A DNA stretch of 64,000 bases from an uncultured Alphaproteobacteria bacterium (GCA_944390355.1 CALXPT010000001.1:47115-111114), one strand, 5' to 3'; positions 12,332 through 64,000 are shown, counted from the first letter of the stretch. Program-made: numbers and translations. Notes: a model not told the origin generated them from the letters alone.

Positions 12332-13189
12332 CTAAAAAGCTAGGACTGGACGAACGTAACCGCCATTGCTATTCTTACCGTAGCCGTACACACCACCATT
12401 ACTGAAGCTCAATCCCCAAGCATGGTAACTAGAATTCTCGGAAGAAGACCAATACCAATCTGTCCCCAATTTTGTTCCGCCGATTTTCCCTAAAGCCGTG
12501 TTCAAAACATCTTTATTTTGATATATGGCATTCAACTCTCCCATAGCTGGCAAATACCAATCTCCGGCTTTTGTTCCATCTGTTTTATAGCTATTCACAT
12601 ATTCAACTGCAGGACAACCTCTCACATTCGTCTTGCAATACTCCAACACCAAACGCGTATTATTTTTACCTTGCCAATCTGCTGTTGCCGCTGATGATGA
12701 ACTATAATTTGATAATGTCGGTACATCAAAATATTCATCCGACCATTCTTTCCTCTCTGTATCCAATCCTATCGCCAAATGGTTAGTCGTATCAAACACC
12801 ACACCGATTGGCTTTTTAGACGCTACAACATTCGGATCACAACTCTTATCCGAATACAAGATATCGCCGATTTGACAATTACTCGACGATGCTCCGTTTT
12901 CTATTGTTACAATTTTTTCCTCTATTGTTGTTATTTTATTAGTGATTTCCGTTATCTTATTCGTTTGTTCGGTTATTTTGTTAGTTAGCTCCGTTATTTG
13001 AGTGCTTAAATCGCTTGCTGTGCAGTTCCATGCATTGCCGAACGGGCATTTAATACCGCCGTTACATGATTGACTGGAAGTATACCCCAAACTTGAACAA
13101 CTCGGGGTTTGGATACAGGCAGCCTCCGCCACACCGCTCAACAAACCACTCACCATCAAAGCTGATGAATATAATAAAAACTTTCTCAT
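12332..13189 (-). CDS. Secreted DUF1566 (Lcl C-terminal-like) protein with NKIT heptad repeats, cassette copy 1
   Basis: Signal peptide MRKFLLYSSALMVSGLLSGVAEA, Cys-rich N-module, tandem ITE(L/Q/I)TNKIT repeats, C-terminal DUF1566-like motifs (GDWYLP..EL, DWYWSSSE, AWGLSFSNG). Start moved to the internal Met. Confidence 0.7.
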   Translation of the reverse strand: MRKFLLYSSALMVSGLLSGVAEAACIQTPSCSSLGYTSSQSCNGGIKCPFGNAWNCTASDLSTQITELTNKITEQTNKITEITNKITTIEEKIVTIENGASSSNCQIGDILYSDKSCDPNVVASKKPIGVVFDTTNHLAIGLDTERKEWSDEYFDVPTLSNYSSSSAATADWQGKNNTRLVLEYCKTNVRGCPAVEYVNSYKTDGTKAGDWYLPAMGELNAIYQNKDVLNTALGKIGGTKLGTDWYWSSSENSSYHAWGLSFSNGGVYGYGKNSNGGYVRPVLAF

Positions 13190-13296
13190 TTTCTTTCTCC
13201 TGTAGGCGGGGCCTACCGCCACCAATTTTGCATTGTGCCCAGACCACCGCATTGTTAATAATTATTGGTTATTTTTCCCTCTCTCTTGACTTTGAA

Positions 13297-14157
13297 CTAT
13301 TGTTCAAAAGCGCAATAGTCGCACCAGTCGGTGCAGCCGGTTGCGCAACCGGTTACAATATATAAACTCGAGCATTCCTCATAAGTGCAGACCGAACACG
13401 GCGGACATTCGCTCTCCGTGCCTAAGTTCGGGCAGGGCTCACATTCCGAACACAAGGTTGTATTACCTGTTCGACAAGTCGGTGTGCCTGCTTTGCACCC
13501 CATATCGCCGCAGTCCAAAAATCCCGAACAGTCTTTCTCTTTGATTTGGTACAAATCACCATCACAAGATTTACAAGGTTCTCCGTCCGCCTCATAACCG
13601 TCGGGAATAGAACCTAATGTGTATTTGTATTCTGCCGGACAAGTCGGCGTACAACAGTCTTTGTATAAACCATTGCCGCAGACCGTACCGACACCTTTTA
13701 ACGGAGCTTCGCAAGTTTTGTAATCACTCGGACAATCCGGAATACATTCGGCAAAATATTTGTTATTCAGCGGACAATATTTGTTGCCTTTATAGCCGCT
13801 TGGGCAAGAGGTTTTGTCATAGCCCATTTTGATACAGCTGTCGGCATCACCACCCCCTGGGGGAATAACTTCCGGTGTGCCGCTTTCTAAATCCGTGCCG
13901 ACAAAATCCGCGCCGCCGCAGTCTTCGGTATCGGTGATAAAGCACACCTGCGCAACTTTAACCTCCGGCCGCTCGCTAAAACTCGGCGAAGACAAATGTC
14001 GAGCCATGAGGTGTGAAGTGTGTGATGTGTGTAATTTAGCATAGCTCGGAACTGGAGGTGCTTTCAGATTAAAACCAATTGATGCTTGAGCTTGATTATC
14101 CAACCAAGCCAAGCTTAATGCTGTTGCACACAGCAAAAGGCAACCCTTTTTCATCAT
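13297..14157 (-). CDS. Secreted cysteine-rich protein (~40 Cys), cassette copy 1
   Basis: Signal peptide; CxxC and CPxxY-rich modules; ~80% identical to the 38965..39840 product. Confidence 0.7.
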   Translation of the reverse strand: MMKKGCLLLCATALSLAWLDNQAQASIGFNLKAPPVPSYAKLHTSHTSHLMARHLSSPSFSERPEVKVAQVCFITDTEDCGGADFVGTDLESGTPEVIPPGGGDADSCIKMGYDKTSCPSGYKGNKYCPLNNKYFAECIPDCPSDYKTCEAPLKGVGTVCGNGLYKDCCTPTCPAEYKYTLGSIPDGYEADGEPCKSCDGDLYQIKEKDCSGFLDCGDMGCKAGTPTCRTGNTTLCSECEPCPNLGTESECPPCSVCTYEECSSLYIVTGCATGCTDWCDYCAFEQ

Positions 14158-41583: not shown

Positions 41584-42330
41584 ATGCAAAATTACACTCA
41601 AGATTATTTGCTCGATAAGCAGGTCAAAATTTTTCAACCGATTAACGGATACCGCGCCTCAACCGATGCCGTGTTCTTATCCGCTATGGTTTCCTCCGTT
41701 AGAAACGGTGATAAAATTTTGGATGTCGGCTCCGGTACGGGGGCTGTTTCTCTTTGCTTGGCGGAGAGATTCAAACATCTGCAAATTTCTATCAACGGTT
41801 TTGAAATTCAACCCGAACTTGCCGAGCTTGCAAACTTAAGTGCTAAAGAAAACGGTTTTGATTTTCTTAAATTTATTAATACCGACATTGCCTCTCCCTT
41901 GCCCGATGGACTCCGATTTTGCAGCTTTAATCATGTGGTTTCGAATCCCCCCTATGCGCTGAAAGATTTGCCCTCTCCCAACAAAAGCAAAGCTACCGCT
42001 CATAACCTAAATCATATGACCTTAACCCAATGGATTAACTTTTGTATCAAAATGACGGCTCCCAAAGGTTTTATCTACCTTGTTAATCGGGCTGAGGCTC
42101 TGGATGAAATTTTATTTGCTTTATACCCTAAAACCGGAAATATTCATATTTTGCCGCTCTTTTCCAAACAGGGGCAAGAAGCCAAGCGCGTGCTTGTTTC
42201 CGCACAAAAGGACTCTAAAGCTCCTCTTATCCTGCATGAGGGAATTGTTGTTCATGATGAAAACGGGGCATACTCTCCCGCGGCTGAAAAAATTCTGCGA
42301 GCCGGCAAGGCTTTTAGTCTGTCCTACTAG
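41584..42330 (+). CDS. N6-adenine methyltransferase, TrmN6/YfiC-like (tRNA m6A37)
   Basis: SAM motif VLDVGSGTG and catalytic NPPY (VVSNPPYA); start chosen at the internal Met, giving ~248 aa. Confidence 0.65.
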   Translation: MQNYTQDYLLDKQVKIFQPINGYRASTDAVFLSAMVSSVRNGDKILDVGSGTGAVSLCLAERFKHLQISINGFEIQPELAELANLSAKENGFDFLKFINTDIASPLPDGLRFCSFNHVVSNPPYALKDLPSPNKSKATAHNLNHMTLTQWINFCIKMTAPKGFIYLVNRAEALDEILFALYPKTGNIHILPLFSKQGQEAKRVLVSAQKDSKAPLILHEGIVVHDENGAYSPAAEKILRAGKAFSLSY

Positions 42331-43549
42331 TCCCGAAGTATGCTATCGGCTTATCGTTCATTGTTGCACTTTCTAATGCCTGATAGGCTTCGCTTAGAAG
42401 TTTTTTATAAGAATCGGCCGGCTCCGGATATGTGCATACGCCAAAACGGCTCTTGATTTGGTATGTTGTAAAATTATCTTCCAACGGAGCTTCTAAAGTT
42501 GATTTAATTTGGGATATTTTGGCGGTAAGCTTTTCTTCCGAATCTATTTGCGGTATGAGCAAGCAATACTCGTTTTCTTTTGAGCCATGCGCCAACGTAT
42601 AATTGCTTTCAAAACAAGTCAGCACTCGTGCCAAAATTTTTTTAAATGCCTGCTTATCCTCTCTCTTTTCAAAAATCGACGGATTTTCTATTCTGAAATA
42701 ACCTACCGCACTTTGCTCTCTGCCAAAACTAATCATGCTACTGCCTGACGGGTGGGTGCGTAATGCAACCTTTACTCTGTCTTCAAATAGCTGGTATATC
42801 GGTAATCCCGTTTCCGAATTGTAAAGTGAAACCTTGTTCTCTCCGATCATCGGGGATGTTCCAAGCAATATAAAACTAAAAGAATGGTCGTCCGGTATAT
42901 ATATTCCCTCAAAATCGACCTTTATCACGTCTCCGTTTTTGTTTTTTAAGCCTATGGGTATAACTTGTCCTTCTGTTAATACGCCGCCTATTCCAACGGA
43001 TACTTTGTCCCAATATTCCGAGGATACATACTGAAAAAAGTTGTTATCTATTACATCAAATTCGTTTTCATAACCGATTTGTTTTAAAAAAGTTGCGTTT
43101 ACATATACTATTTTATCATCACTAATTATTGCTACCAAGCGAGGAGATTTGGCAAAAACTTTGAGAATTAAGTCCCTTAGTGAAAGTGTGATATTTTCCA
43201 GATTGCTTTTCACCTCCGGTTCTTGCCTATTATGACTTTCTTTTGAAATATACTCTCTTTCTATTTCTTCCGTATCTTCTTGTGCTGCGTACGGCGGCAG
43301 TTCCGGTATCGCTTCCAATTTCATTGACTGTGCCGCCGTAGGCTGAGAAGCCTTTATTGCTTTTGGGGGATTATTATTTTCCGGCTTTCTATCTTCTTCT
43401 CCATCCAACGCTTCCAACTTGTCCAACAACACGTTGTAATCTTTTGCTTTAGCTAAAATAGAGGTATCTATCTCTTTTAGCGAATTATCGTTGCTAATTG
43501 TTTCCAAATATTCCAAAGACGAAAAATCTTCTATCGGATTTTGCATCAT
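42314..43549 (-). CDS. PAS plus degenerate GGDEF-domain protein with acidic N-terminus
   Basis: PAS-like segment followed by a GGDEF-like domain in which the GG(D/E)EF site reads GSKENEY; C-terminal GGDEF elements (SRFGVCTYP, AYQALESA) are retained. Confidence 0.5.
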   Translation of the reverse strand: MMQNPIEDFSSLEYLETISNDNSLKEIDTSILAKAKDYNVLLDKLEALDGEEDRKPENNNPPKAIKASQPTAAQSMKLEAIPELPPYAAQEDTEEIEREYISKESHNRQEPEVKSNLENITLSLRDLILKVFAKSPRLVAIISDDKIVYVNATFLKQIGYENEFDVIDNNFFQYVSSEYWDKVSVGIGGVLTEGQVIPIGLKNKNGDVIKVDFEGIYIPDDHSFSFILLGTSPMIGENKVSLYNSETGLPIYQLFEDRVKVALRTHPSGSSMISFGREQSAVGYFRIENPSIFEKREDKQAFKKILARVLTCFESNYTLAHGSKENEYCLLIPQIDSEEKLTAKISQIKSTLEAPLEDNFTTYQIKSRFGVCTYPEPADSYKKLLSEAYQALESATMNDKPIAYFGTSRTD

Positions 43550-43687
43550 CTATATTCTCCGTTATTTCCTTTTCTATATAGATTAATATTTATTAAAAAA
43601 AATGCAATTAGTTAAATTTTTGCTGTTTATTAATAAATTTGTTTTATTTTAACTTATAAGTATTTAGTTTTTTTAGAGAATATTCAT

Positions 43688-45763
43688 ATGAGTGAAGAAG
43701 AGCTTTTAACACAGCATATTAATCAGGAGACAGAAAGTACTCCACAAACAGATGCTCAAGAAACTGTTTTGGGGATGCCGCTTTCTAAAGAAACTTTTAA
43801 AAAAGTTTTAATCAAAGATCGTTTTGAGATTAATTTTGATGCTTCTATCCCTTGGTTAAATAATAATGGGGCTACCGCCTATGCCGTTTCGGATAGAATC
43901 GACACGGCTCGCAAACTTTTTGCTCTTGTGTGTGATGGTGAGACTTCTCCCAGACTTTCTATTCTACCATATCTTAAATCTATTGATAATCCGGCTCTCT
44001 TAAAACTTGTCGAATTCGGAACGGTTTGTTTGCCCGAAACAAAAAAGCATCGTATGGTTCTTATTTATGAGATGCCTTTGGGTGGAAAAGTTTTTGAAAA
44101 TGGAGTTTGTACCCTTGATTTTAAAAACAATCATGAGAAATTTAAAAATGTTATTTTAAGTTTTTTGGTTTTGTCTGAAACGCTTAAGAGCATGAACATT
44201 ACTCATCGCGCTATTCGCCCCGATAACCTCTATTTTATTGATGAAAACAAAAGCGAGATTGTTATTGGTGATTGTATTGCCGCTTTTCCTGCTTATTATC
44301 AACCTGCTGTTTATGAGGCTATTGACAGTCTATATGCTGACAAATTAGCAAGAGGAAACGGCAATGAGAAAAATGATATTTATTCTATCGGTATGACTGC
44401 TCTCGCTCTTTATGTCGGACACGAAATTTCTACCAATATTACTGATGCTGAGACCCTAAGATTGAAAATTCGTAAAAGTTCTTTTTCTTTTATTTCTAGT
44501 GTCGAAAAAATTCCTACTGATTTTAGCTCTTTATTTAAAGGTATGTTAAATGATGACAGCGGATTGCGCTGGGGCTATTCTCAGGTTTTGAGTTTTTTTT
44601 CCGGAAAACAAGTCAGCTTGGGAAATAACTCAAGTTCCGAGCGTCCCAAAAGAGCCTTAAACATTGATGGAGAAAAAGTCTATATGCCAAGAGATGTGGT
44701 ATATAGCATGCATAATAATATTTCTGAAGCTTATGATTTGATTATCCGCGGAAAACTTTCTGATTGGGCTAAAAACGGTTTGGAAAACGAAAAACTCGCA
44801 TCTCAAATCGATGCCATCGTCAAACAAGAGTTATCTTCGGCAGGAAATAAGGATTTAACTATCGCTCGCATCTCTATACTTATTGACCATTCTTTGCCTA
44901 TTCGCTATCGAAATATCTCTTTCTTTCCTGACGGTATTGCCAAAGCCGTTTTCCATGAAATGAAAAATAAAAAATCTATTAAAGATTATAACGATATTTT
45001 TTCTACCGATTTGATTAAACTTTGGTATCAGATGCAGGAAAGTTTACGCGCTCCCGGAAATATTACTGAATTTCGGGTCTATATCATGCGATCTGAAATC
45101 GGATATGGTATTGAACGTATTATTTATGATATTGACAATGATTTACCTTGCATCAGCTCATTATTTGAAAACGAATTCGTTTCTAGTGCTCCTCAGGTCT
45201 TGAAAGCATTAAATGCATCTTTTGAGCAAACAAATATTACCTCTCAACCGTATGACAGATCAATTATTGCCTTTCTTAGATGCAAAATGGGCAAGAAAAT
45301 CGACAATTATTTGGCAGGATTATATTCAAATCGCAGTGAAATTAAAGCTTCTGCTATCTTGCAACTCTATTCCATGATGCAAACTAAATTCGGCCCTTCC
45401 GAACTTGTTAATTTGGCTCGGTGGTTGGTTAATTATTGTAAACCGATGATTTTGGTCTATCATAATAAAAAATACCAAAAATATTTAGAAAAAGAGCTTG
45501 TTAAGATTTATCAACATGGAAAATTATATGAAATTTTGAATTTACTTGAAAATGAAGCTGCTTTGGAAAAAGACAGAAATGATTTTGCGGCTATCCTTAA
45601 CGAAGTTAATCTTTTGCTCCTTGAAAAAAATAAAATTTCTGATTATATGGCAAAACTTGGAGAATCCGCTCGAGCTTCAGCTCTCAAACTGGCTTCTTTC
45701 GTTTCTGTTTTAGTTATGATTGCTTCTTTTGCCTACAATCTTATCTCTTGGGTGTTAAATTAA
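43688..45763 (+). CDS. Protein-kinase-like fold protein (probable pseudokinase) with C-terminal TM anchor, 691 aa
   Basis: Subdomain VIb-like HRAIRPDN (catalytic Asp replaced by Ala), VII-like IGDCIAA, IX-like DIYSIGMTALAL; C-terminal hydrophobic tail; AT-rich gene. Confidence 0.45.
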   Translation: MSEEELLTQHINQETESTPQTDAQETVLGMPLSKETFKKVLIKDRFEINFDASIPWLNNNGATAYAVSDRIDTARKLFALVCDGETSPRLSILPYLKSIDNPALLKLVEFGTVCLPETKKHRMVLIYEMPLGGKVFENGVCTLDFKNNHEKFKNVILSFLVLSETLKSMNITHRAIRPDNLYFIDENKSEIVIGDCIAAFPAYYQPAVYEAIDSLYADKLARGNGNEKNDIYSIGMTALALYVGHEISTNITDAETLRLKIRKSSFSFISSVEKIPTDFSSLFKGMLNDDSGLRWGYSQVLSFFSGKQVSLGNNSSSERPKRALNIDGEKVYMPRDVVYSMHNNISEAYDLIIRGKLSDWAKNGLENEKLASQIDAIVKQELSSAGNKDLTIARISILIDHSLPIRYRNISFFPDGIAKAVFHEMKNKKSIKDYNDIFSTDLIKLWYQMQESLRAPGNITEFRVYIMRSEIGYGIERIIYDIDNDLPCISSLFENEFVSSAPQVLKALNASFEQTNITSQPYDRSIIAFLRCKMGKKIDNYLAGLYSNRSEIKASAILQLYSMMQTKFGPSELVNLARWLVNYCKPMILVYHNKKYQKYLEKELVKIYQHGKLYEILNLLENEAALEKDRNDFAAILNEVNLLLLEKNKISDYMAKLGESARASALKLASFVSVLVMIASFAYNLISWVLN

Positions 45764-53922: not shown

Positions 53923-54798
53923 TTATTTCAAACAAGCTAATTCTCCAACTGCCTTTTGTAATTTGCGAATCGAGTTTAGTTCTATTTGCCGCACGCGTTC
54001 TTTCGAAATGCTGTATGCCCGACTCAGGTCATCTAATGTCAGAACTTTTTCCGACAAACGTCTCTTGAAAAGTATGTCTTTTTCTCTTTCGTTGAGGCAT
54101 GACAGGGCTTTGGTGAACAGTTTTTTGCGATATTGATAGGTTTCGGAATAGCCTAACTGTTCTTCTTGGTTGGGTTTTTTGTCCGCTATAAAATCCTGCC
54201 ATTCACGGCTATTGTCCGAAGAATCGACAACCATGTTGAGTGAGCCATCGTGCGCGGACATACGATTATTCATTTCCGTTACTTCTTGCACACTTACATC
54301 CAATGAATGCGCTATATCGGCCAATATTTCATTGCTGAGTTCCTTATCCTCCATTAACCGGAGGTTGTTCTTGACTTTTCGCAAATTAAAAAACAGCTTC
54401 TTCTGCGCCGCAGTTGTTCCGATTTTGACCAATGACCATGAATTCAGAATATATTTTTGAATTGAGGCTTTTATCCACCACAAGGCATAGGTTGAAAATC
54501 TAAATCCTTTATCCGGATCAAATTTTGCAACCGCATACATCAGCCCGATGTTTCCCTCGGATATCATTTCACTCAACGGTAGGCCGTACCCCTTGTATTT
54601 GGACACAACCTTTACTACCAAGCGCAAATGCGGCATTATCAGCTGATAAGCTATCTTTTCATCATGACTTGCCTGATAGGCCTTGGCGAGTTTATATTCT
54701 TCTTTCACATCCAGTATCGGATACTTTCGAATGCTTTGCAGATATCTTGCTAGATTAAGTTCGGGTGAGAATTCAAGTCCAATAAGAGTGTCTGCCAT
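53923..54798 (-). CDS. rpoH: RNA polymerase sigma-32 factor RpoH
   Basis: Region 2 and the RpoH box (TAAQKKLFFNLRK), regions 3 and 4. Confidence 0.85.
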   Translation of the reverse strand: MADTLIGLEFSPELNLARYLQSIRKYPILDVKEEYKLAKAYQASHDEKIAYQLIMPHLRLVVKVVSKYKGYGLPLSEMISEGNIGLMYAVAKFDPDKGFRFSTYALWWIKASIQKYILNSWSLVKIGTTAAQKKLFFNLRKVKNNLRLMEDKELSNEILADIAHSLDVSVQEVTEMNNRMSAHDGSLNMVVDSSDNSREWQDFIADKKPNQEEQLGYSETYQYRKKLFTKALSCLNEREKDILFKRRLSEKVLTLDDLSRAYSISKERVRQIELNSIRKLQKAVGELACLK

Positions 54799-54889: not shown

Positions 54890-55867
54890 TCAGAATCCGG
54901 TTTGCAATATTTTTATCAAGTTCTGCATATCTTGCGGGAGTTCGGCGGTAAATGATATAAATTGTTGTGTTCGCGGATGAATGAAACCTAAAGTTGCAGC
55001 ATGCAGGGCTTGGCGCGGAAAATCGTTCACTTCATTTTTTATTTCCGTCGGCAGTGCTACTGTTGTTTTGTGATTTTTTACATAAACCTTATCCCCGATT
55101 AAATTGCAACCTCGAGATGACAGATGTACTCTGATTTGATGCGTGCGACCGGTCTCAAGACGGCATTCTACCATGGAGGCGGCATTGTGAAATATCTTGA
55201 GCGTTTTATAATTTGTTATCGCATGTTTTCCGCCTGATTTTAACACAGCCATTTTCTTGCGGTCATAGGGGCTTCGGCCGATATTGGTTTCAATCTTTCC
55301 TTCTAAGGGCTGCATTACACCGTAAACTACCGCATAATATGTTCGCTCTATGGAATGTTGGGCAAACTGCAGGCTTAAACCATGGTGTGCCATGTCGTTT
55401 TTGGCAACGACCAGCAAGCCGCTGGTTTCTTTATCTATTCGGTGCACTATTCCGGGGCGTTTCACTCCTCCTATGCCTGATAAGCGTCCCTGACAATGAA
55501 AAAGAAGTGCGTTCACAAGTGTATGTTCATAAGCTCCGGGGGCCGGATGAACCGTCATTCCCGCCGGTTTGTTAACAACCAAAATATCTTCATCTTCATA
55601 GACTATCTCTAAGGGGATGTTTTCGGGAAGCGGCGTCGGTTCTTTTGCCTCCGGAATAACTATTTGAAAGCTGTCATCTAATCTTACTTTATATGAATTA
55701 TCGGTTATAATCGTATCTTCAAGAGAAACAGCTCCTTCTGCTATCAGCCGTTGTATTTGTGAGCGCGAAATCTCGGGTATACTTGAGGCTAAAAATTTGT
55801 CCAGCCGCTCTCCTTTGGTCGTTTCATCTACTTCCGGTGTTGTGTATGTTTGTGTTTCATTATCCAT
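54890..55867 (-). CDS. rluD: 23S rRNA pseudouridine synthase (RluD family)
   Basis: S4 domain followed by the RluA catalytic motif HRIDKETSGLLVVAK. Confidence 0.8.
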   Translation of the reverse strand: MDNETQTYTTPEVDETTKGERLDKFLASSIPEISRSQIQRLIAEGAVSLEDTIITDNSYKVRLDDSFQIVIPEAKEPTPLPENIPLEIVYEDEDILVVNKPAGMTVHPAPGAYEHTLVNALLFHCQGRLSGIGGVKRPGIVHRIDKETSGLLVVAKNDMAHHGLSLQFAQHSIERTYYAVVYGVMQPLEGKIETNIGRSPYDRKKMAVLKSGGKHAITNYKTLKIFHNAASMVECRLETGRTHQIRVHLSSRGCNLIGDKVYVKNHKTTVALPTEIKNEVNDFPRQALHAATLGFIHPRTQQFISFTAELPQDMQNLIKILQTGF

Positions 55868-55938
55868 TTACAATTCCTATTTTTTCTTATATCATTAGTG
55901 TTACTCTTTGTTCTAACCTTTTGCAAGGAAAATGATTC

Positions 55939-56232
55939 ATGGATAAACTCAAACTTGTTAAAGCTTTGGTCGCCTTATTGAGTTTTTTACTCGTGTTCGG
56001 TATTTTGACCGCAGCTACACTCATCTACAAAAAAATTAATGCTAGAAATAATCCTAATCAAAATACCATACAAACCATTCATTTAAACGAGCCTTTCGGC
56101 AGTTCCATTAACGCAATGTTAGAAAATAACGGGTATATTTACCTTCTCGTTAAAGACGGCGGCATAGCTGACCGAATTATTGTTCTGGATGCCGAGAAGC
56201 TCTCTAAAACCGCAAAAATTGTCTTGGAGTAG
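55939..56232 (+). CDS. Small membrane-anchored protein, 97 aa
   Basis: Single N-terminal TM. Confidence 0.4.
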   Translation: MDKLKLVKALVALLSFLLVFGILTAATLIYKKINARNNPNQNTIQTIHLNEPFGSSINAMLENNGYIYLLVKDGGIADRIIVLDAEKLSKTAKIVLE

Positions 56233-56251
56233 ATTGTGAAAGAGGTTTGAT

Positions 56252-57136
56252 ATGGCTGATGCTAACAGCGATGATGAATTTGAAAAATTATTAAATGATT
56301 TTATTTCGACTCAGCTCGAAGATGTCGACCTTGATAAGGTTTCTTCCGTTACCAAGGAAGCTGCCATTAACAACGTTTCCGACGTTGAAGTTCCCTCTTT
56401 GAACAAGTCTCATCCTACTTCGGAACAAGATGATGATGATGAGTTGGCTGCGCTTAAAGAAGGTGAAAAAGCTTTATTTAAAGCCTATCATAACTTTAAG
56501 GATGCCATTGATATGATGGCCGAAGAAAACAAGCTGCCTCCGATTGCGTTTAGAGTTCAGCCGGATAAACTTGTCCCTCACTATAAACCGTCTGTCGGAA
56601 AACTCATTGCCGAAGATACTCTTGCCGGTTGGGATGTCATGATTCAATGCGACCCTGATACGTTTGTTCAAATCCGTCATGACATGACAGACGAACAGCT
56701 ACTCGATTTTGCCGAAAAAACTAATGATGATGTCGTCCAATTCGCTTTGATTTCTTATGTCGAAATTTTGATTGAAATGGAAGGATGCGAAATTTCTTAT
56801 AAAGAACGCAAACTTAAACGCGAAAAGAAAAAACTCGAACGCAAAATTTATGAAGACCATCAACGCCGGATTGAATTGATTAACCGCTACATTAAAGCCG
56901 TGCAGGAAAAAAACTTTCCCATTGATGCCGAAAGGCTTGTTAAAAACTATTTTAAAACCGCTAAAAAAGACCCCGACGGCGCTTATAAAGTTTTAACACA
57001 GAATCCCGCCGTCTATGCTCCGATTCAAGTCGATAAAATTAAACCAAGGTTCTTCGGCCTTTTGAAAGTTAAGCCTCAGGACGGTATTCGGATGAACAAA
57101 CTTATCGGGGAATTTTTGAAAAAGCTAAAAGCATAA
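56252..57136 (+). CDS. Acidic hypothetical protein, 294 aa
   Basis: N-terminus MADANSDDEF, similar to the start of the next gene (MADENDKF). Confidence 0.45.
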   Translation: MADANSDDEFEKLLNDFISTQLEDVDLDKVSSVTKEAAINNVSDVEVPSLNKSHPTSEQDDDDELAALKEGEKALFKAYHNFKDAIDMMAEENKLPPIAFRVQPDKLVPHYKPSVGKLIAEDTLAGWDVMIQCDPDTFVQIRHDMTDEQLLDFAEKTNDDVVQFALISYVEILIEMEGCEISYKERKLKREKKKLERKIYEDHQRRIELINRYIKAVQEKNFPIDAERLVKNYFKTAKKDPDGAYKVLTQNPAVYAPIQVDKIKPRFFGLLKVKPQDGIRMNKLIGEFLKKLKA

Positions 57137-57228
57137 TTATTTTGCGGAAAATAATAGACAAAAACTAAAAATTGTGTTAAAGTAGTATTCAGATAAGAAA
57201 GCATATTTTGATTTAAGGTAGAATAAAA

Positions 57229-58875
57229 ATGGCTGATGAAAACGATAAATTTCCGGTTCACGTCAACAATAACAACGGCAACTCAAACTCTGCCGTGCGA
57301 CCTACGGAGCGCAATGGTGCAACACCCAATACACCTATGCCGACACGGACAAACGCAACGCCGAACACGCCTATGCCGACACGGCCGTCCATGACACCAA
57401 ATACGCCGGCTACATCTCGGCCGTCCATGACGCCGAACACACCTATGCCCGTGCAACACAATATGCCGCAACCCGTACAGCATCAAACACCGAATCTTCC
57501 GCAAAAATTTGCTCAGGAAGATGAGAACTCGTTGACCGTTGATGAAATCAAAGAAACCGACGTCAACGAAAAAGAAGATACCTTAACCGTTGATGAATCT
57601 AAAGAAACCGATGTTCATGAGGCCGAAGACACTCTTGTTGTTGATGAAGCAAACACGGCAACCGTTCATCAAGCCGAAAATGAACAACCACAAACACCGG
57701 TTGAACCCGAAAACGAAAATACAGATGATCAAACCGGTGAAGCGGAAAGACGTCCAGATGAGCCGGCCAACACCGATTTGGACAGCGACAAAAAAGGTCC
57801 GTTTGCTCCCAAAGACATTATCGAATATATGTTTAATGACTGGCTCATCGGCGGAATGAATGAAGCTTGGTGCTGGCTCTCAAAAAAAACCGACCTTGCC
57901 TATTATCGCGACAGATATGAAAAACGCCGTAAAGCCAATAATAAGGTCGAAGCCAAAGAGGTGAAGGAACACCAGACCTTTAAGGATATGGAAACTCTTG
58001 ATAAAATGGCCAATGATGACATCGCCAAAAAGAGCGAAAGCATCGGTCGATATAACAGCTTGGTTGAAACGGCAGATAAAATCCGTGAAGGCAAAATTGA
58101 TGAAACTAACCTCAGCCCCGAGGCTAAAGCCGATTTGAAAGCTGCCGATCAACAAAAATTGCAACAATTTTTGAACCCGCAGAGTATTCAAAAGGCTCAA
58201 GAAAATATGAAAATGACCTTGGAGGCGGCGGCGGTTTTTTCCAACAACTATGCTTTGTTGATGGCGATGGATGCCAAAATGCAAAATTCTTCGGCCGAAG
58301 ACCTCAAAGATATGAAAAAAGCTTTTGCCAAATATCAGGCCGAAGGTTTTAAGTTTTATGCCAAAGCTATCGGTGATGCCGTTCGCAGCGGGCAAGACCC
58401 CAATCAGGTCAACCAGCAACTCATGAACATTGTTAATCAAGGTATCGATAAAATGCATAAAGACGTTACCAAAGGAAACTTTGACGGGTGCAACAAGAAG
58501 AGACTTATCGGACATAAAAAAGGAAAATACAAAGGAAATGAGTTTGTTGATAAGTTAAATGCTTTGCGCAACGGCGTGGATTTGGACAACTATCAGCCCA
58601 TGTCTTTCCGCGAGGCGGTGGTTATGTCTCAGGCTTATGATACGCAATCGCAATACAAGCTTGATGAGTTGGCTCTGAGTTCGGCTCGCGCGGCTAACGA
58701 CAACCGCCGCAACAGCGCACATCAAGCGATTGATAATATGAATAATCCTTACTATAATAATTCCCGCGGAAATACGCAGACTCAAAATCAGCAGCAGTCT
58801 CAATCCCATTCGCAAACGCAACAAAATCAACAAGTGCCGCCGATTAATCCTAATTTCAGAGACGGGGGCAGATAG
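57229..58875 (+). CDS. Repeat-containing protein: Pro/Thr-rich N-repeats, acidic 16-aa repeats, Q-rich C-tail; 548 aa
   Basis: Tandem nucleotide and amino-acid repeats (TPNTPMPTR; EDTLTVDE.KETDV); no TM. Confidence 0.5.
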   Translation: MADENDKFPVHVNNNNGNSNSAVRPTERNGATPNTPMPTRTNATPNTPMPTRPSMTPNTPATSRPSMTPNTPMPVQHNMPQPVQHQTPNLPQKFAQEDENSLTVDEIKETDVNEKEDTLTVDESKETDVHEAEDTLVVDEANTATVHQAENEQPQTPVEPENENTDDQTGEAERRPDEPANTDLDSDKKGPFAPKDIIEYMFNDWLIGGMNEAWCWLSKKTDLAYYRDRYEKRRKANNKVEAKEVKEHQTFKDMETLDKMANDDIAKKSESIGRYNSLVETADKIREGKIDETNLSPEAKADLKAADQQKLQQFLNPQSIQKAQENMKMTLEAAAVFSNNYALLMAMDAKMQNSSAEDLKDMKKAFAKYQAEGFKFYAKAIGDAVRSGQDPNQVNQQLMNIVNQGIDKMHKDVTKGNFDGCNKKRLIGHKKGKYKGNEFVDKLNALRNGVDLDNYQPMSFREAVVMSQAYDTQSQYKLDELALSSARAANDNRRNSAHQAIDNMNNPYYNNSRGNTQTQNQQQSQSHSQTQQNQQVPPINPNFRDGGR

Positions 58876-58893
58876 TTTGGAGATTTTACCGGC

Positions 58894-59376
58894 ATGAAAA
58901 AAACTCTTAAATTCTGTTTTGTCGGCGTGGTTTGGTCCGCTCTTTTCTTGGGCGGTATGAACCTCTTGTTCATGCTGCTTTGGAATTTTAATCTGTTCCA
59001 CTGGTCTGACTGGAAAATTATTGCTCTTTTCTGGAATAGCGGCGGGGTTATTCGTTCCGCTTCCGATTTTGCGTTTTTGCTCCTCTTAGTACTGTGTTTT
59101 ACCATATGGATTTGGGGTTGGAAAAAAGCCCTCAAAATTAATGTTCTCGCTATTTTGATGAAGCCTTTGGAATATTATCGCAAATATGAGCTTAAAAAAT
59201 ACGGCGAATCGTCAAGAATTGTCTTGAAAAACATCGGCTTTTCGGCTAAAACTGGTAGTGATGACGAGATTATTAAAACCGAGCTGAAAAAAATCGCAAA
59301 AGAAATCGATGATTCTAAAGAAGTTCCCAAAATAAGAGAAGTTGTTAACGAAAGAATCAGCGATATCAAAAAATAA
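58894..59376 (+). CDS. Membrane protein, 160 aa (N-domain paralogous to the next gene)
   Basis: Shares a W-rich TM layout with the 59433..60842 N-terminus. Confidence 0.45.
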   Translation: MKKTLKFCFVGVVWSALFLGGMNLLFMLLWNFNLFHWSDWKIIALFWNSGGVIRSASDFAFLLLLVLCFTIWIWGWKKALKINVLAILMKPLEYYRKYELKKYGESSRIVLKNIGFSAKTGSDDEIIKTELKKIAKEIDDSKEVPKIREVVNERISDIKK

Positions 59377-59432
59377 TCTCTTGTTAACTTATGTATGCTA
59401 GCATATTCTATCTGTTATGAGGATTTTGTGCA

Positions 59433-60842
59433 TTGAAACCTTTGGTTATTTTAACGAGAATCTTATGTGTCGGCCTCTTTTGGAGCTTGTTCTTCATTGA
59501 AGGCGTCAGAGTGATTATGCTCCGTAACTGGCATTTTGATATCTTTCAGACTGCACACTGGAATCATGCTTGGAATCTTTGGCTCTCCGGTTGGGTTATT
59601 CGTACCCCTAAGGAATGGGCCTTCGTTCTTATCATTTTGACTTTTATTCCCCTCTGGTTGTGCGGATGGTCCGCTCTGAGTTTAATCAAATGGGAAAAAA
59701 TCGCCGTTAAAGCTGCTGATTTTCCTGTCATTTTGTTCCGCAAATTCTTCTTTCGTCCGGTTAAAATCATTACAACTTCGGGCGGGATGAAAAACATCAA
59801 AAAGAAAAAATCTTACAAAGAAGTCCGCCCCAAAAGTTTGCGCTTGCCTCTTGATGAACGCCCCGATGTTATGCCAAGCAATTTGTTACAATCTCCTCGT
59901 GCAAAGTTCTCTGCCCCGCAAAGTGTTGCAAACTTCGGTGCTACTCCGGTTGGACAGACAAATCCGACACCGGCTCCTACTCCTAAATTTCTCGAAACTC
60001 CGGTTTCTTCCGAGCCTAAGCAGTTTAGCCATTCTTTGTTTGATATGGACAGCAAAGATGATGATTTTGATTTCAATATCGATGATTTTGATTTAACCGA
60101 ATCCGATAACAAAAAATCATCTCCCGAAGAAGCTCCGCGTAAAAACCTTCCGCAAAAAAGAGATAATCAACGCGAGATGCGCGATAACTCTCCTAAGGAT
60201 AATTCTTCAAGGGATAATGCTCCCAGAGAACGTAACGGCAAAAAAAATCGTGATAATAATGCCAATTTACCCGCAACCGCCCGCCATAATAACCAGCCGG
60301 CAAATACAAAACAAGCTAATCTGCCGTCTCAACCCAAAGGCAGCGGAAACTCCGTTTTGGATGTTATTAAACAGCATGGGTTTGATGTTATTGCCGGTGC
60401 GACCATTAAAAACAACCTTATTGATTTTATCGGTGTGGCTCAAAACCAAATCGTCCTTTGTCTGATTGATAAAGAAACAGGAGATTGGCTCGCCGATGAA
60501 GAGCGTTTTAATGATGAAGAGCCTTTATGGTTTTCGGAAAGCAGCCACCGAATTTCTCCGGTCAGAAAAGTAGACATTGCGCGGAAAGTGCTTACGGAAA
60601 CTCTTGATACTCAAGGATTGCGCTTTGAGGTTAAGCCCTTTGTCATCGTTTCTATCGGAAATATTATTAATGCGGAAGATATGTTTGACATTTGGGATGA
60701 TTTAGGTGTCAATGTTACGCGTATTGACCGCGGAACGCCCAAAGAAATTAAACTTTTTGCCAGAACTCTGCCTGATGCTCGAGAGCCTATCGGCAAAGGG
60801 GATTTTGAAAATATTAAGAAAATTATTCATAACATTGCATAA
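59433..60842 (+). CDS. Membrane protein with disordered linker and a C-terminal globular domain (possible PD-(D/E)xK/NERD-like)
   Basis: TTG start; C-domain contains D...CLIDKE...EVK; ends 18 nt before the coupling-protein gene. Confidence 0.4.
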   Translation: MKPLVILTRILCVGLFWSLFFIEGVRVIMLRNWHFDIFQTAHWNHAWNLWLSGWVIRTPKEWAFVLIILTFIPLWLCGWSALSLIKWEKIAVKAADFPVILFRKFFFRPVKIITTSGGMKNIKKKKSYKEVRPKSLRLPLDERPDVMPSNLLQSPRAKFSAPQSVANFGATPVGQTNPTPAPTPKFLETPVSSEPKQFSHSLFDMDSKDDDFDFNIDDFDLTESDNKKSSPEEAPRKNLPQKRDNQREMRDNSPKDNSSRDNAPRERNGKKNRDNNANLPATARHNNQPANTKQANLPSQPKGSGNSVLDVIKQHGFDVIAGATIKNNLIDFIGVAQNQIVLCLIDKETGDWLADEERFNDEEPLWFSESSHRISPVRKVDIARKVLTETLDTQGLRFEVKPFVIVSIGNIINAEDMFDIWDDLGVNVTRIDRGTPKEIKLFARTLPDAREPIGKGDFENIKKIIHNIA

Positions 60843-60860
60843 GCTGTTTAAGGAGTTGAT

Positions 60861-63053
60861 ATGTCTGAGAGCCGTGGTGAAGAATGGGAAGAATATGATA
60901 AAGCCGTCAAATGGATGATGGTTACTTTTATCGTTACTCTCGCCGTTACGATTTTTTTTGCTTTGTTTTCCTTGCCGCTCGGCTATCTTATCGGCGCAGG
61001 TGTGTCTAAAGGAAGTATGGCGGTTACGGGACAATTTTTGCAAGCCGTGTTTTCCGACCCGTCTTATCTGATTTCCAGATACGGTAGTTGGTTCAGGCAG
61101 CTCGCCGCTTATAACGGTTCTTTTTCCGCCAGTTTATGGCTTCCGATTATTCCGTTTATTTCTCTGCCTGTCGGTATTACCATCGGCTATCTGACAAATC
61201 CGTATCGTTTTCAATCAAATATTCATGGTGCGGCTCGTTTGGCTACAGAAAAAGATATTCGCAAAATGCCGCTGCTCGGGTTTGACGGCTTTTGTCAGGT
61301 GGTCGGAAAGTTTAACGGCAAAATGCTTATGCTTAAGGAAACTCTCGCTACCCTTTGCTGCGCTCCTCCGGGTACCGGTAAAACTGCCGGCGTGGTTATT
61401 CCTACCATTTTTAATTCTCATGGGTTGAGTATTATCGTTAATGACCCAAAACCTGAGTTGTGTTATTCTACAACCGGAGCCAGAGCTAAAGACGGCCCAG
61501 TGTTTGTTATTAACTGGGGTGCTGAAGACAACCCTGCCGAAGGTATTTATTATCCGAGCTGGAATCCTCTTTCACCAAACGCTTTGCCCGCTCCGGGGCC
61601 GGACAGAGACATGTATATCGACTCTATGTGCAATATCTTGGTGGAAGACCCTAAAGGCGGTGCCGACCCTCACTGGTCGACAACCGGTCGTGCCGCACTA
61701 ACCGGATTCATCCATTTTGTGTCTTTTAAATGCGAAAAAGCTCGCGCCAATGACTATTTTATCGGGCGAATCTATGAAGGCAAAATGGATGAAGAAGATA
61801 AACGCGTGCTGGAAGGATATTATCTTGAAATGCATGACCCGCTTGCGGCTAAGGCTATTCAAGATTTGCGCTCCGGCAACCTCACGATTGACAACTATTT
61901 GCCGATTGGTTCTTGGGCTCTGCTACCGGAAAAATGGATTGGACACGAGTCTTGCCTCGCGATGATTTTGGAATGGATTACCGAAGCGCAGATTAAGCAA
62001 TCTGAAGAAATTAAACGTCGCTTGGAAGAAGGCGACCAGATGGCGGCCATGGCTGATCCAATGCGAAATATGCTTGAAGAAGCAATCGATGAAGCCAGAA
62101 AATACGGTTATTCTCAACGCTGTATCGTCGAACTCAGCCAGCTCAGCGCAATGCCGGATAAAGAGCGCGGTTCCGTGTTGTCTACAGGTTTGGCCGGTAT
62201 CGGTATTTTCAAAAACGCGGCCGTGGTTTCGCGCACGAGTTTTTCGGATTTGCAATTTAAGGATTTGCGCGGTATGAAGGATCCGGTTACCGGTGAGTGG
62301 AAGCCGATTTCGGTTTATTTGTCCGTTAACCAAGTTGATGCGCGCGCGTTGAACATTATTTCAGGTACATTTATCGAGTTAATGTCATCTTATTTGATTG
62401 CGAATCCGCCTAAATTCAAAAATAAAACCGACGGTGTTATGGGACCGTTTCCAGCTTTGTTCGTACTCGATGAGTTTCCGCAAATGCCTAAGCTTAAAGC
62501 TATTATCGACGGACCTGCCGTCGGTCGTGGTCAGAAAGTGTCTTATCTGCTCATCGGGCAAGATTTGGGGCAAATCTCCGGAAAATACGGAAAGGACGAT
62601 TTGGAAACGGTTATTTCTACAACGGCTTGCAAAGTTATTCTTTCTCAAAACAATGAGGTTACCGCTCAGCGTTTCTCTAAGATGATTGGCAACAAGACCG
62701 TACAGACAACCTCTTTTTCTAAAACTGAAGGGTTGGGCAAAGGGGCGAATCCGTTCTCCAAAAACGTGTCTTATCAGCTGCAGGGAACGTCGGTTATTTC
62801 AACGACGCAGTTGTTGAGTTTGCCGATGCTTAAACAGGTGGTATTGATGCAAGGGTCTATTGACCGGCCGATTATGGCTGATTCTCCTCGTTGGTATTTG
62901 GACAAGAAGATGAAGGCATTGGCGGCTTTGCCTCCTTCTCCTTGGGTGCCGGATTGGATTGTGGCGCAACGTGAAGATATTAATGATGATATGTTAGCCA
63001 AACTTGCCGAACCGGAGGCTCTCAGTGATGAAGACTTGGAGGATGATGAATAA
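60861..63053 (+). CDS. Type IV secretion coupling protein (VirD4/TraG family)
   Basis: N-terminal TMs, HGAARLATEKDI (HGSARWA-like), Walker A APPGTGKT, NDPKPEL (DPKGE-like), Walker B FVLDEFPQMPKL; acidic C-tail EDLEDDE. Confidence 0.8.
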   Translation: MSESRGEEWEEYDKAVKWMMVTFIVTLAVTIFFALFSLPLGYLIGAGVSKGSMAVTGQFLQAVFSDPSYLISRYGSWFRQLAAYNGSFSASLWLPIIPFISLPVGITIGYLTNPYRFQSNIHGAARLATEKDIRKMPLLGFDGFCQVVGKFNGKMLMLKETLATLCCAPPGTGKTAGVVIPTIFNSHGLSIIVNDPKPELCYSTTGARAKDGPVFVINWGAEDNPAEGIYYPSWNPLSPNALPAPGPDRDMYIDSMCNILVEDPKGGADPHWSTTGRAALTGFIHFVSFKCEKARANDYFIGRIYEGKMDEEDKRVLEGYYLEMHDPLAAKAIQDLRSGNLTIDNYLPIGSWALLPEKWIGHESCLAMILEWITEAQIKQSEEIKRRLEEGDQMAAMADPMRNMLEEAIDEARKYGYSQRCIVELSQLSAMPDKERGSVLSTGLAGIGIFKNAAVVSRTSFSDLQFKDLRGMKDPVTGEWKPISVYLSVNQVDARALNIISGTFIELMSSYLIANPPKFKNKTDGVMGPFPALFVLDEFPQMPKLKAIIDGPAVGRGQKVSYLLIGQDLGQISGKYGKDDLETVISTTACKVILSQNNEVTAQRFSKMIGNKTVQTTSFSKTEGLGKGANPFSKNVSYQLQGTSVISTTQLLSLPMLKQVVLMQGSIDRPIMADSPRWYLDKKMKALAALPPSPWVPDWIVAQREDINDDMLAKLAEPEALSDEDLEDDE

Positions 63054-63080
63054 TTTTATCCTTTGATTTTGGTTATAAAT

Positions 63081-63113
63081 AAAGCCCGCTCTTTAAGAAC
63101 GGGCTTTTGTTTA
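63081..63113. terminator. Bidirectional terminator
   Basis: aaagcccg-ctctttaagaa-cgggcttt followed by a T-run. Confidence 0.6.
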
Positions 63114-63145: not shown

Positions 63146-64000
63146 CTAAAGCTTTGTCCATATCTCTACCTCTAAAGCACTGTCCATAGTGGTCTCACCT
63201 GCAAATATTGTATAACACGTTTGTCCATCGCCTTCAGTTATTGTCTTAACTTCATTCGTTAAAAAGTTATAGCATTTGTAGCTGTTTGAACCTACTTTTT
63301 CAGCAAAATAAAACCGATTTAATATATCATCTGAATAAGCTTTTCTTAAAGTGCTCAAATTATCACCATATACACTTGAATCTGAAAATCCATTAACATC
63401 ATTTGAGCCGTCAGTTAGTTCTACAAGAAATTCTTCCCAACGAACCTGATACGCACATGCCTTCTCTGATTCATAGTAATCTACACCGGCCAAACCATCA
63501 GGATAGTCGCCAAGACACATATATTTATATGCTCGAAATCCATTTGCTGAACTCCGCTTTGGCTTTGTTGCTTCTACTGAATTACTTAAATCAACAATTC
63601 TGTCTCTTATTAGGCTAGAAGAATCATCCCAATTATATTTATATCCAATAATTACGCCGACTAATTTACCATATCCACTCTGTATTGACTTAAAACAGTC
63701 TCCGCTACCATACAAATAACCTCTAAAATTACATCTCTTTCTCGGACAATGTTTATAAGTTCCTCCACATCCATTATCATCGGTAACATAACTATTGGGA
63801 CAAGAACGCAAATTGCCATCTTGTCTTGGAGTACATTTTTTACAAACTGTTCTTGCTCCGCCACATCCATCATCTACTGCTACCGTTCCATTAGGACAAT
63901 TTGTCTCACTTGGTAATGGCGTACAACTACAGGCCCATTTTTCTCCAAACGGACATTTGAGACATCCTCCTGTATTGGTACTGCTATTATATCCTAATGT
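63146..64000 (-). CDS. Cysteine-rich secreted-type protein, 5' end beyond the window
   Basis: The reading frame stays open upstream of the track's TTG at 63811 (no stop to the window edge; repeated ...DDGCGG...CKKCTP...RSCPNSY... modules). Confidence 0.5.
   Translation of the reverse strand, partial: TLGYNSSTNTGGCLKCPFGEKWACSCTPLPSETNCPNGTVAVDDGCGGARTVCKKCTPRQDGNLRSCPNSYVTDDNGCGGTYKHCPRKRCNFRGYLYGSGDCFKSIQSGYGKLVGVIIGYKYNWDDSSSLIRDRIVDLSNSVEATKPKRSSANGFRAYKYMCLGDYPDGLAGVDYYESEKACAYQVRWEEFLVELTDGSNDVNGFSDSSVYGDNLSTLRKAYSDDILNRFYFAEKVGSNSYKCYNFLTNEVKTITEGDGQTCYTIFAGETTMDSALEVEIWTKL

Follow-up and report, generated by a model that had tools for sequence, protein, structure and literature searches.

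A 64,000-nucleotide (nt) stretch of DNA from an uncultured Alphaproteobacteria bacterium (GCA_944390355.1 CALXPT010000001.1:47115-111114; hereafter the window) encodes a type IV coupling protein (T4CP) of the VirD4/TraG family as the last of six same-strand genes (55939-63053, +). The interpretation that we favour, and hold tentatively, is that the locus specifies a lineage-specific inner-membrane coupling complex that feeds a channel encoded elsewhere. The motor of such a complex would be an ATPase-competent VirD4-family hexamer, joined in the membrane by two paralogous proteins with two transmembrane (TM) helices each, g160 and g469. On a long, flexible cytoplasmic tether, g469 would hold a PD-(D/E)xK-fold domain with an invariant acidic loop beside the motor; g294, a helical bundle with an acidic N-terminal helix and a basic C-terminus, would act as a soluble adaptor; and g548, which is disordered, repeat-bearing and fast-evolving with a positively charged C-terminus, would be the leading candidate substrate. 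The complex would select the substrate and energise its transfer into a channel not encoded here, most probably a type IV secretion system (T4SS) elsewhere in the genome. That the six products associate physically, that g294 and g548 serve as adaptor and substrate, and that the channel exists is inferred. The anatomy of the locus, in which a membrane-tethered cytoplasmic partner is encoded immediately 5' of the T4CP, other partners are soluble and the T4CP itself ends in an acidic tail, fits the coupling or effector-recruitment module suggested by an earlier interpretation of the window made without database searches (the sequence-only reading). Legionella provides a precedent for a coupling complex rich in accessory proteins (PMC7280309, PMC5802825).

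The coupling protein and its operon

The T4CP (730 amino acids (aa); 60861-63053, +) was searched against the Pfam coupling-protein models PF02534, PF10412 and PF12696 and matched T4SS-DNA_transf (E 1.2e-56; 193 bits, cut-off 20.1), TraG-D_C (1.4e-22; 80.4 bits, cut-off 22) and TrwB_AAD_bind (1.1e-16; 61.1 bits, cut-off 20.5). Two N-terminal TM helices (hydropathy segments at approximately residues 14-49 and 88-112), the motifs IHGAARLA, APPGTGKT (Walker A), NDPKPE and LDEFPQ, and the acidic tail EPEALSDEDLEDDE (net -11 over the last 30 residues) were all found in the translation, in agreement with the earlier description of a bona fide T4CP. The tail is most pronounced in the lineage with the extra partners. 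We take the host clade to be the RF32/CAG-239 group; Walker A is APPGTGKT in 88/88 RF32 proteins and Walker B is LFVLDEF or a close variant, so the T4CP is neither truncated nor degenerate in these relatives and is predicted to be ATPase-competent.

The protein is a real yet divergent coupling protein. It scored far below every cut-off of the NCBIfam VirD4/TraG/TraD equivalogs (PRK13897, PRK13850, PRK13876, TIGR02767, TIGR02759 and others), the best being conju_CD1115 (140 bits, cut-off 250), with VirD4 PRK13897 at 117 bits (cut-off 728). A single-sequence search of the PDB gave no match. When the family profile was used instead, the best solved structures were Helicobacter pylori Cag5/Cag-beta (8DOL, E 1e-12) and R388 TrwB (1E9R, 3.5e-4), followed by DotL (6SZ9, 1e-3), and these matches cover solely the C-terminal half of the ATPase domain. 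Unlike Cag-beta and TrwB, the T4CP has an insert of ~160 residues (~271-430) with family-specific motifs (e.g. E[QRK]AxANDYF) and no counterpart among solved structures.

Calling of open reading frames (ORFs) on the window placed six + strand ORFs with intergenic gaps of 18-92 nt where the sequence-only reading had put its genes, and independent gene calls on six metagenome contigs with an identical T4CP gave the same six. The end coordinate of that reading, 63113, lies 60 nt past the stop codon (63053). A putative sigma-70-like promoter, TTTACA-17-TATCAT (55867..55895, +; 10/12 matches in a consensus scan only), lies in the 72 nt that separate the divergent rluD and g97 genes and is the likely operon start, and no convincing + strand terminator was seen inside the six-gene block. 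Based on the short gaps, the single promoter-like site and the lack of an internal terminator, the six genes are treated here as one operon.

Conservation across species

The source organism is an uncultured gut alphaproteobacterium of the 'Azospirillum sp. CAG:260' group. Homologues come from human and animal gut metagenomes, under names such as 'Azospirillum sp. CAG:260', 'Azospirillum sp. 47_25', 'Candidatus Scatocola', 'Proteobacteria bacterium CAG:495' and 'uncultured Alphaproteobacteria', and the genomes of the clade are small (~2 Mb). A scan of one genome per GTDB species yielded 449 relatives, close ones only, of which the best 80 were analysed; outgroup contexts were obtained from a separate metagenome scan (see below). 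By tblastn across the 80 species, the order rpoH(-), rluD(-), g97, g294, one ORF, g160, g469, T4CP was recovered in every sufficiently long locus, while genes beyond the rpoH-T4CP block varied between species. The upstream genes are thus co-conserved with the T4CP in 80 species. Given this and the intact T4CP of the relatives, the outcomes that the sequence-only reading had named as refuting it were not observed. The divergent flank, rpoH (53923-54798, -) and rluD (54890-55867, -), both identified with Pfam, is a synteny anchor and lies outside the functional module.

Median identity to the window was 80% for the T4CP (range 76-93%), 71% for RpoH and 63% for RluD; among the partners it was 50% for g469, 48% for g294, 43% for g97, 37% for g160 and, where detectable, 29% for g548. 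The T4CP exceeded RpoH in conservation in 73/73 species, and we therefore regard the locus as a vertically inherited core locus and not as a mobile element. These identities point to very strong purifying selection on the T4CP.

Conjugative ancestry of the coupling protein

An exhaustive search of 50%-identity cluster representatives with the T4CP as query returned full-length relatives graded from 52% down to ~28% identity, one of them from a 'Rickettsiales bacterium' metagenome-assembled genome. The closest annotated relatives (33% identity) are encoded on megaplasmids of Sphingosinicella, Erythrobacter and Microvirga; for the VirD4 proteins of Sphingosinicella sp. BN140058 p1 and Erythrobacter aureus YH-07 the alignment spans T4CP residues 10-686. 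In the Sphingosinicella and Erythrobacter regions, VirD4 closes a canonical conjugation operon beside a MobA/MobL relaxase. The Erythrobacter record annotates VirB2, VirB4, VirB8, VirB9, VirB10, VirB11 and VirD4, the Sphingosinicella layout is alike, and on these plasmids the T4CP gene comes last in the operon, after MobA-VirB2-B4-B8-B9-B10-B11. In Pfam domains, in the pair of TM helices and in Walker motifs, these alphaproteobacterial plasmid VirB/D4 (MPF-T) coupling proteins agree with the T4CP of the window. Unlike them, the latter is chromosomal, has five unrelated genes in front of it and neither vir nor mob genes nearby, and is conserved far beyond expectation for the T4CPs of mobile elements.

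Nearer outgroups were retrieved by scanning metagenomes with a peptide specific to them, which gave 80 loci. Those of outgroup I (T4CP 53-63% identical) have a g469-like gene of ~370 aa directly upstream of the T4CP and two small genes downstream. In outgroup II (T4CP 43-50% identical) the T4CP is placed between rRNA-modification genes and two lipoprotein genes, with rpoH 3.5-6 kb away. At one such locus (L138:8567-12789) a gene for a TPR-like lipoprotein of 420 aa begins 13 nt after the T4CP and is succeeded by one for an LpoB-family lipoprotein of 246 aa, with rsmE-like and rsuA-like genes divergent upstream; the arrangement is similar in four further loci (L131, L154, L156 and L160). A neighbour-joining tree, that is, a distance tree with no support values, joined RF32 with outgroup I and then with outgroup II, and the plasmid VirD4s were sister to the whole orphan clade. 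Sequence relationships thus indicate that the T4CP descends from the conjugative VirD4s of alphaproteobacterial VirB/D4 systems.

This ancestry and the occurrence of orphan T4CPs in mobilisable elements (cf. PMC7563491) speak for a mobile-element remnant or hitch-hiker: an integrative mobilisable element with a T4CP only, in which g469 would be an unusual relaxase and the channel would be borrowed from a conjugative element in the same cell. Such an origin is highly improbable, and we consider it largely refuted and effectively excluded. The site beside rluD-rpoH is fixed in 80 species and divergence tracks that of host genes; the T4CP is under stronger selection than RpoH; neither an integrase, a relaxase nor a flanking repeat was found near the operon in the window annotation; the 64 kb have no tRNA gene and no Rfam match at the gathering threshold; and the G+C content of the operon (41-44%) is like that of the rest of the window, without a shift. 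A mobile island was rejected on the grounds of the missing tRNA, integrase and G+C shift and of the fixed position. A plasmid origin of the partners was likewise rejected, as g469 and g294 had no tblastn match among 72,556 plasmids.

Membrane partners g160 and g469

The two membrane proteins encoded upstream of the T4CP share an N-terminal 2-TM domain (BLASTP, 33% identity over 67 aa, E 2e-12), so the paralogy noticed at first sight is real. The shorter paralogue, g160 (160 aa; 58894-59376, +), is a predicted inner-membrane protein with two TM helices by scan; it is paralogous to the N-terminal domain of g469 and was present in 78/80 loci. Its longer counterpart, g469 (469 aa, TTG start; 59433-60842, +), consists of a 2-TM anchor (residues 1-106), a basic juxtamembrane segment KKKKSYKEIRPRS, a disordered linker of ~190 aa that bears a conserved acidic-aromatic motif (FDHSLF.FDD.DDDFDFNFDAFD), and a C-terminal domain (residues 305-469) that is probably cytoplasmic by the positive-inside rule. 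Always found directly 5' of the T4CP, in outgroup I as well, g469 is the partner most tightly linked to it.

In the structural model, residues 305-469 form an alpha/beta domain with the PD-(D/E)xK core fold (alpha-beta-beta-beta-alpha-beta), and the PD-(D/E)xK superfamily (Can2/Card1 nuclease domain, VC1899/DUF1887, NucS and AF1548) is its closest known counterpart. Unlike these proteins, the g469 domain is membrane-tethered and has no sequence-level family membership: the g469 family gave no match to PDB sequences and no significant match to nuclease families. Asp331 and Asp346 are conserved. The lysine, Lys347, directly follows Asp346 and is therefore off the canonical (D/E)xK register, and in outgroup I its place is taken by S, D, A or Q. 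Beta-3 is followed by an inserted acidic loop of 30 residues, GDWLADEERFNDEEPLWFSESSHRISPVRK; essentially invariant across species and disordered in the model, this loop looks like the functional element of g469.

The fold and the two conserved aspartates raise the prospect of a DNA-handling machine, in which the g469 domain would cut or hold DNA at the membrane, in the manner of a MOBC-type relaxase or a competence nuclease, and the T4CP would pump it, for export, uptake or transfer of chromosomal DNA. T4CPs are DNA translocases by ancestry, here from conjugative operons, which speaks for such a role. The off-register and unconserved lysine and the missing nuclease-family match speak against it, as does the fact that the most conserved element of g469 is the acidic loop and not a catalytic motif; in addition, no HUH, MOB or Rep protein and no repeat resembling an origin of transfer (oriT) was seen. 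On balance we judge a DNA-handling machine quite unlikely, and a further line of evidence that touches on it is given with the genes downstream of the T4CP in relatives.

The position of g469 also bears on the Legionella type IVB system, in which the T4CP is ringed by dedicated membrane and soluble substrate recruiters. According to the sequence-only reading, the gene immediately 5' of the T4CP occupies the place of DotM. This holds for position, and the likeness extends to an N-terminal membrane anchor followed by a cytoplasmic domain, as in DotM (PMC5802825), and to the acidic or extended tail of the T4CP. It does not hold for homology. The cytoplasmic domain of DotM is all-alpha (PMC5802825), that of g469 alpha/beta; the T4CP profile matches DotL far less well (E 1e-3) than Cag-beta (1e-12), and the protein is of the VirD4/Cag-beta type; no Dot/Icm gene is present and no Dot/Icm family was matched in Pfam or NCBIfam; and g294, which had been put forward for the same check, matched none of IcmS, IcmW, LvgA or DotN. 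Homology to DotM, DotN, IcmS, IcmW and LvgA was rejected by fold and profile searches. We accordingly give next to no weight to a true homologue of the DotL-DotM-DotN-IcmSW-LvgA complex, which is already refuted at the homology level; the Legionella complex resembles the one favoured here in concept, with no homologous component.

Soluble and small partners

In the soluble protein g294 (294 aa; 56252-57136, +), a conserved acidic helix at the N-terminus (DDEFE.LLN.FI) is joined through a disordered linker (residues 25-59) to an all-alpha bundle that is predicted with confidence (residues 60-294; predicted local distance difference test score, pLDDT, 86), and the conserved C-terminus is basic (net +8). 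Fold matches of the bundle were generic helical bundles only and the family had no PDB-sequence match. In the model it is a novel helical bundle, and we regard it as a candidate adaptor.

The second soluble protein, g548 (548 aa; 57229-58875, +), is the repeat protein of the sequence-only reading, and a tandem repeat of 36 nt x 3.6 was indeed located at 57322-57449, corresponding to a Pro/Thr-rich unit of 12 aa. Half of the protein is disordered; it has an acidic region, a helical C-terminal half with a net-positive C-terminus and, at residues 196-214, a single conserved hydrophobic motif (DII.YM...W.L..A.W). In 80/80 loci the g548 position is occupied by exactly one + strand ORF, 437-755 aa long, with homology detectable solely by an iterated hidden Markov model. 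Over the last 40 residues the orthologues have a median net charge of +4, and GGR or GRE ends are frequent. A C-terminal signal consensus for VirB/D4 substrates is known from Agrobacterium substrates. The basic C-terminus of the divergent g548 resembles such signals, in keeping with the favoured coupling complex, and it is because of its divergence and its C-terminus that the protein is proposed as a candidate translocated substrate. Both g294 and g548 begin with MAD(A/E)N.D, as had been pointed out. The match is real and appears trivial: the proteins are otherwise unrelated and g548 orthologues start differently, and a common signal was therefore rejected.

The first operon gene, g97 (97 aa; 55939-56232, +), encodes a small single-pass membrane protein with a marginal match to DUF6476 (PF20082; 24.9 bits, cut-off 24). 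It is found at the same position in 68/80 species loci and is absent from the outgroup loci, and its part in T4CP function is uncertain. Apart from this DUF6476 match, the five partners had no significant match in Pfam, NCBIfam, PADLOC or PHROG. Since none of the six proteins matched PADLOC defence systems or PHROGs phage families, an anti-phage defence system or prophage was rejected. A divergent, cryptic VirB operon in the five upstream genes was also rejected: they include no ATPase, gave no tblastn match to VirB2-B11, and their sizes and topologies do not fit.

A toxin-immunity-like pair in relatives

Two extra same-strand genes, d204 and d150 (e.g. L007:12237-13284 and L099:10802-11905), come after the T4CP in 32/80 RF32 species and in outgroup I. 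The d204 product (~200 aa) has an invariant P-E-N..H...N...H...H pattern typical of HNH nucleases, and its sole PDB match, to the pyocin AP41 DNase, is non-significant (E 0.8). The d150 product (~150 aa) has sub-threshold matches to SUKH/SMI1_KNR4. Faintly, the two resemble a toxin-immunity pair, which would fit T4CP-dependent toxin export. In the Xanthomonas/Stenotrophomonas X-T4SS, which kills bacteria, VirD4 recruits XVIPCD effectors with cognate immunity proteins (PMC6759196, PMC8740702). The likeness to that system lies in the HNH-like and weakly SUKH-like genes after the T4CP in relatives; the differences are that no XVIPCD domain was identified, that there is no adjacent virB cluster, and that the pair is missing from the window. 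An HNH-like d204 would also contribute to the DNA-handling machine considered above in many relatives, its signature being invariant, although the HNH assignment leans on the non-significant AP41 match.

A coupling protein without a linked secretion system

No VirB, Tra, Dot or relaxase family appeared in the whole-window Pfam annotation, in which the genes are housekeeping or of no known family, and tblastn agreed, as the sequence-only reading had maintained for the window. Within ~10 kb of the T4CP, no T4SS or relaxase gene was found in 90 RF32 and 80 outgroup loci, a result that concerns linkage only. To our knowledge, every T4CP studied so far passes its substrate to a mating-pair formation (Mpf) channel, and a channel encoded elsewhere is therefore the most economical reading.

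Several observations weigh against the favoured coupling complex. When Erythrobacter VirB2-B11 and MobA proteins were used as tblastn queries, the T4CP alone was matched in the window, in 1.73 Mb of RF32 loci and in the 80 outgroup loci, and the detachment of the T4CP from vir clusters is therefore old and general. The T4CP never adjoins a vir gene in ~170 loci; in Rickettsiales, by contrast, even scattered T4SS genes keep virD4 beside virB8-11. In outgroup II the T4CP, with intact Walker motifs, occurs without g469, so the motor can persist without these partners. The adaptor and substrate roles are proposed solely from composition and evolutionary rate, contacts among the six products are presumed, and the d204/d150 pair is absent in the window's own species.

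A T4CP that is never beside vir and that stands solo in outgroup II leaves room for channel-independent as well as DNA-handling roles. In the channel-independent case, the VirD4 hexamer would act with g160 and g469 alone in the inner membrane, either transporting a cargo (nucleic acid, or a protein such as g548) through the membrane or along it, or remodelling a substrate; the T4CP would have been retained as a core gene after loss of the ancestral VirB channel. A VirD4 ATPase domesticated in this way, as a vertically inherited core gene and self-sufficient translocase or remodeller without a VirB channel, seems to us unlikely on present evidence. It would account for T4CPs unlinked to vir in several lineages, for solo T4CPs with intact motifs, for a core gene that evolves more slowly than RpoH in genomes of ~2 Mb, and for the clade-specific membrane partners. 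It would also suit the distribution of constraint within the T4CP, where identity across species is 85-90% in the nucleotide-binding domain and 83% in the insert and just 46-62% in the TM helices and periplasmic loop, so that constraint falls on the cytoplasmic motor and insert. Against it, we know of no T4CP that works without an Mpf channel, the absence of T4SS genes covers the sampled neighbourhoods only, and the periplasmic loops of ordinary T4CPs are likewise poorly conserved.

What is understood of coupling proteins comes almost wholly from those whose gene closes a conjugation or effector-secretion cluster. The T4CP described here has left its cluster, gained five partners of unknown families, and is now among the most conserved proteins of a widespread human and animal gut group. 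If a T4SS is encoded elsewhere, the favoured coupling complex would be a second, independently evolved, accessory-rich one beside that of Legionella, and would indicate that a common uncultured gut lineage secretes substrates, possibly toxins aimed at other bacteria. If there is none, no earlier coupling protein would have been shown to work without a channel, which bears on what T4CPs do alone in the inner membrane. In both cases four or five new protein families, clearly associated in the genome, are defined by the locus. Literature that connects RF32 or 'Azospirillum sp. CAG' with secretion was searched for and none was found, and the locus may be undescribed.

Neighbouring genes

The rest of the window is housekeeping in character (relA/spoT, rnc, era, uvrC, gcrA, motAB, fba, rpe, a mur ligase, corA, dtd, rpoH and rluD), with some ORFs without family match; gltX, recN, bamD, lpxC and mraZ lie beyond it. 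About 10 kb from rpoH, the window encodes a GGDEF protein and a second protein, of 691 aa, in which a protein-kinase domain is weakly recognisable (42314-45763), and the same genes stand directly beside rpoH in a CAG:260-type genome (L007:1-2633). Based on this difference in placement, the left boundary of the conserved block is set at rpoH.

To the right of the operon, a gene at 63146-63811 (-) and the next one beyond the window (L001:12269-14143) encode two Cys-rich proteins without family match. Among strains with a 100% identical T4CP the 63146-63811 protein differs both in sequence (73-100% identity) and in length (306-314 aa), which suggests that it is strain-variable and possibly surface-exposed or secreted. 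In one strain with an identical T4CP (L004:14356-22193), the DNA downstream of the T4CP joins genes found at ~31-38.8 kb of the window (CTP_transf_3, Peptidase_S66, Mur ligase and MFS) in place of gltX-recN-bamD-lpxC. The two strains thus differ by an inversion or rearrangement whose breakpoint lies immediately after the operon. Lastly, two adjacent genes in the rpoZ/uvrC interval (12332-13252, - and 13297-14157, -) encode proteins of ~286-306 aa, one of which carries an Lcl_C domain (Legionella collagen-like protein C-terminal).

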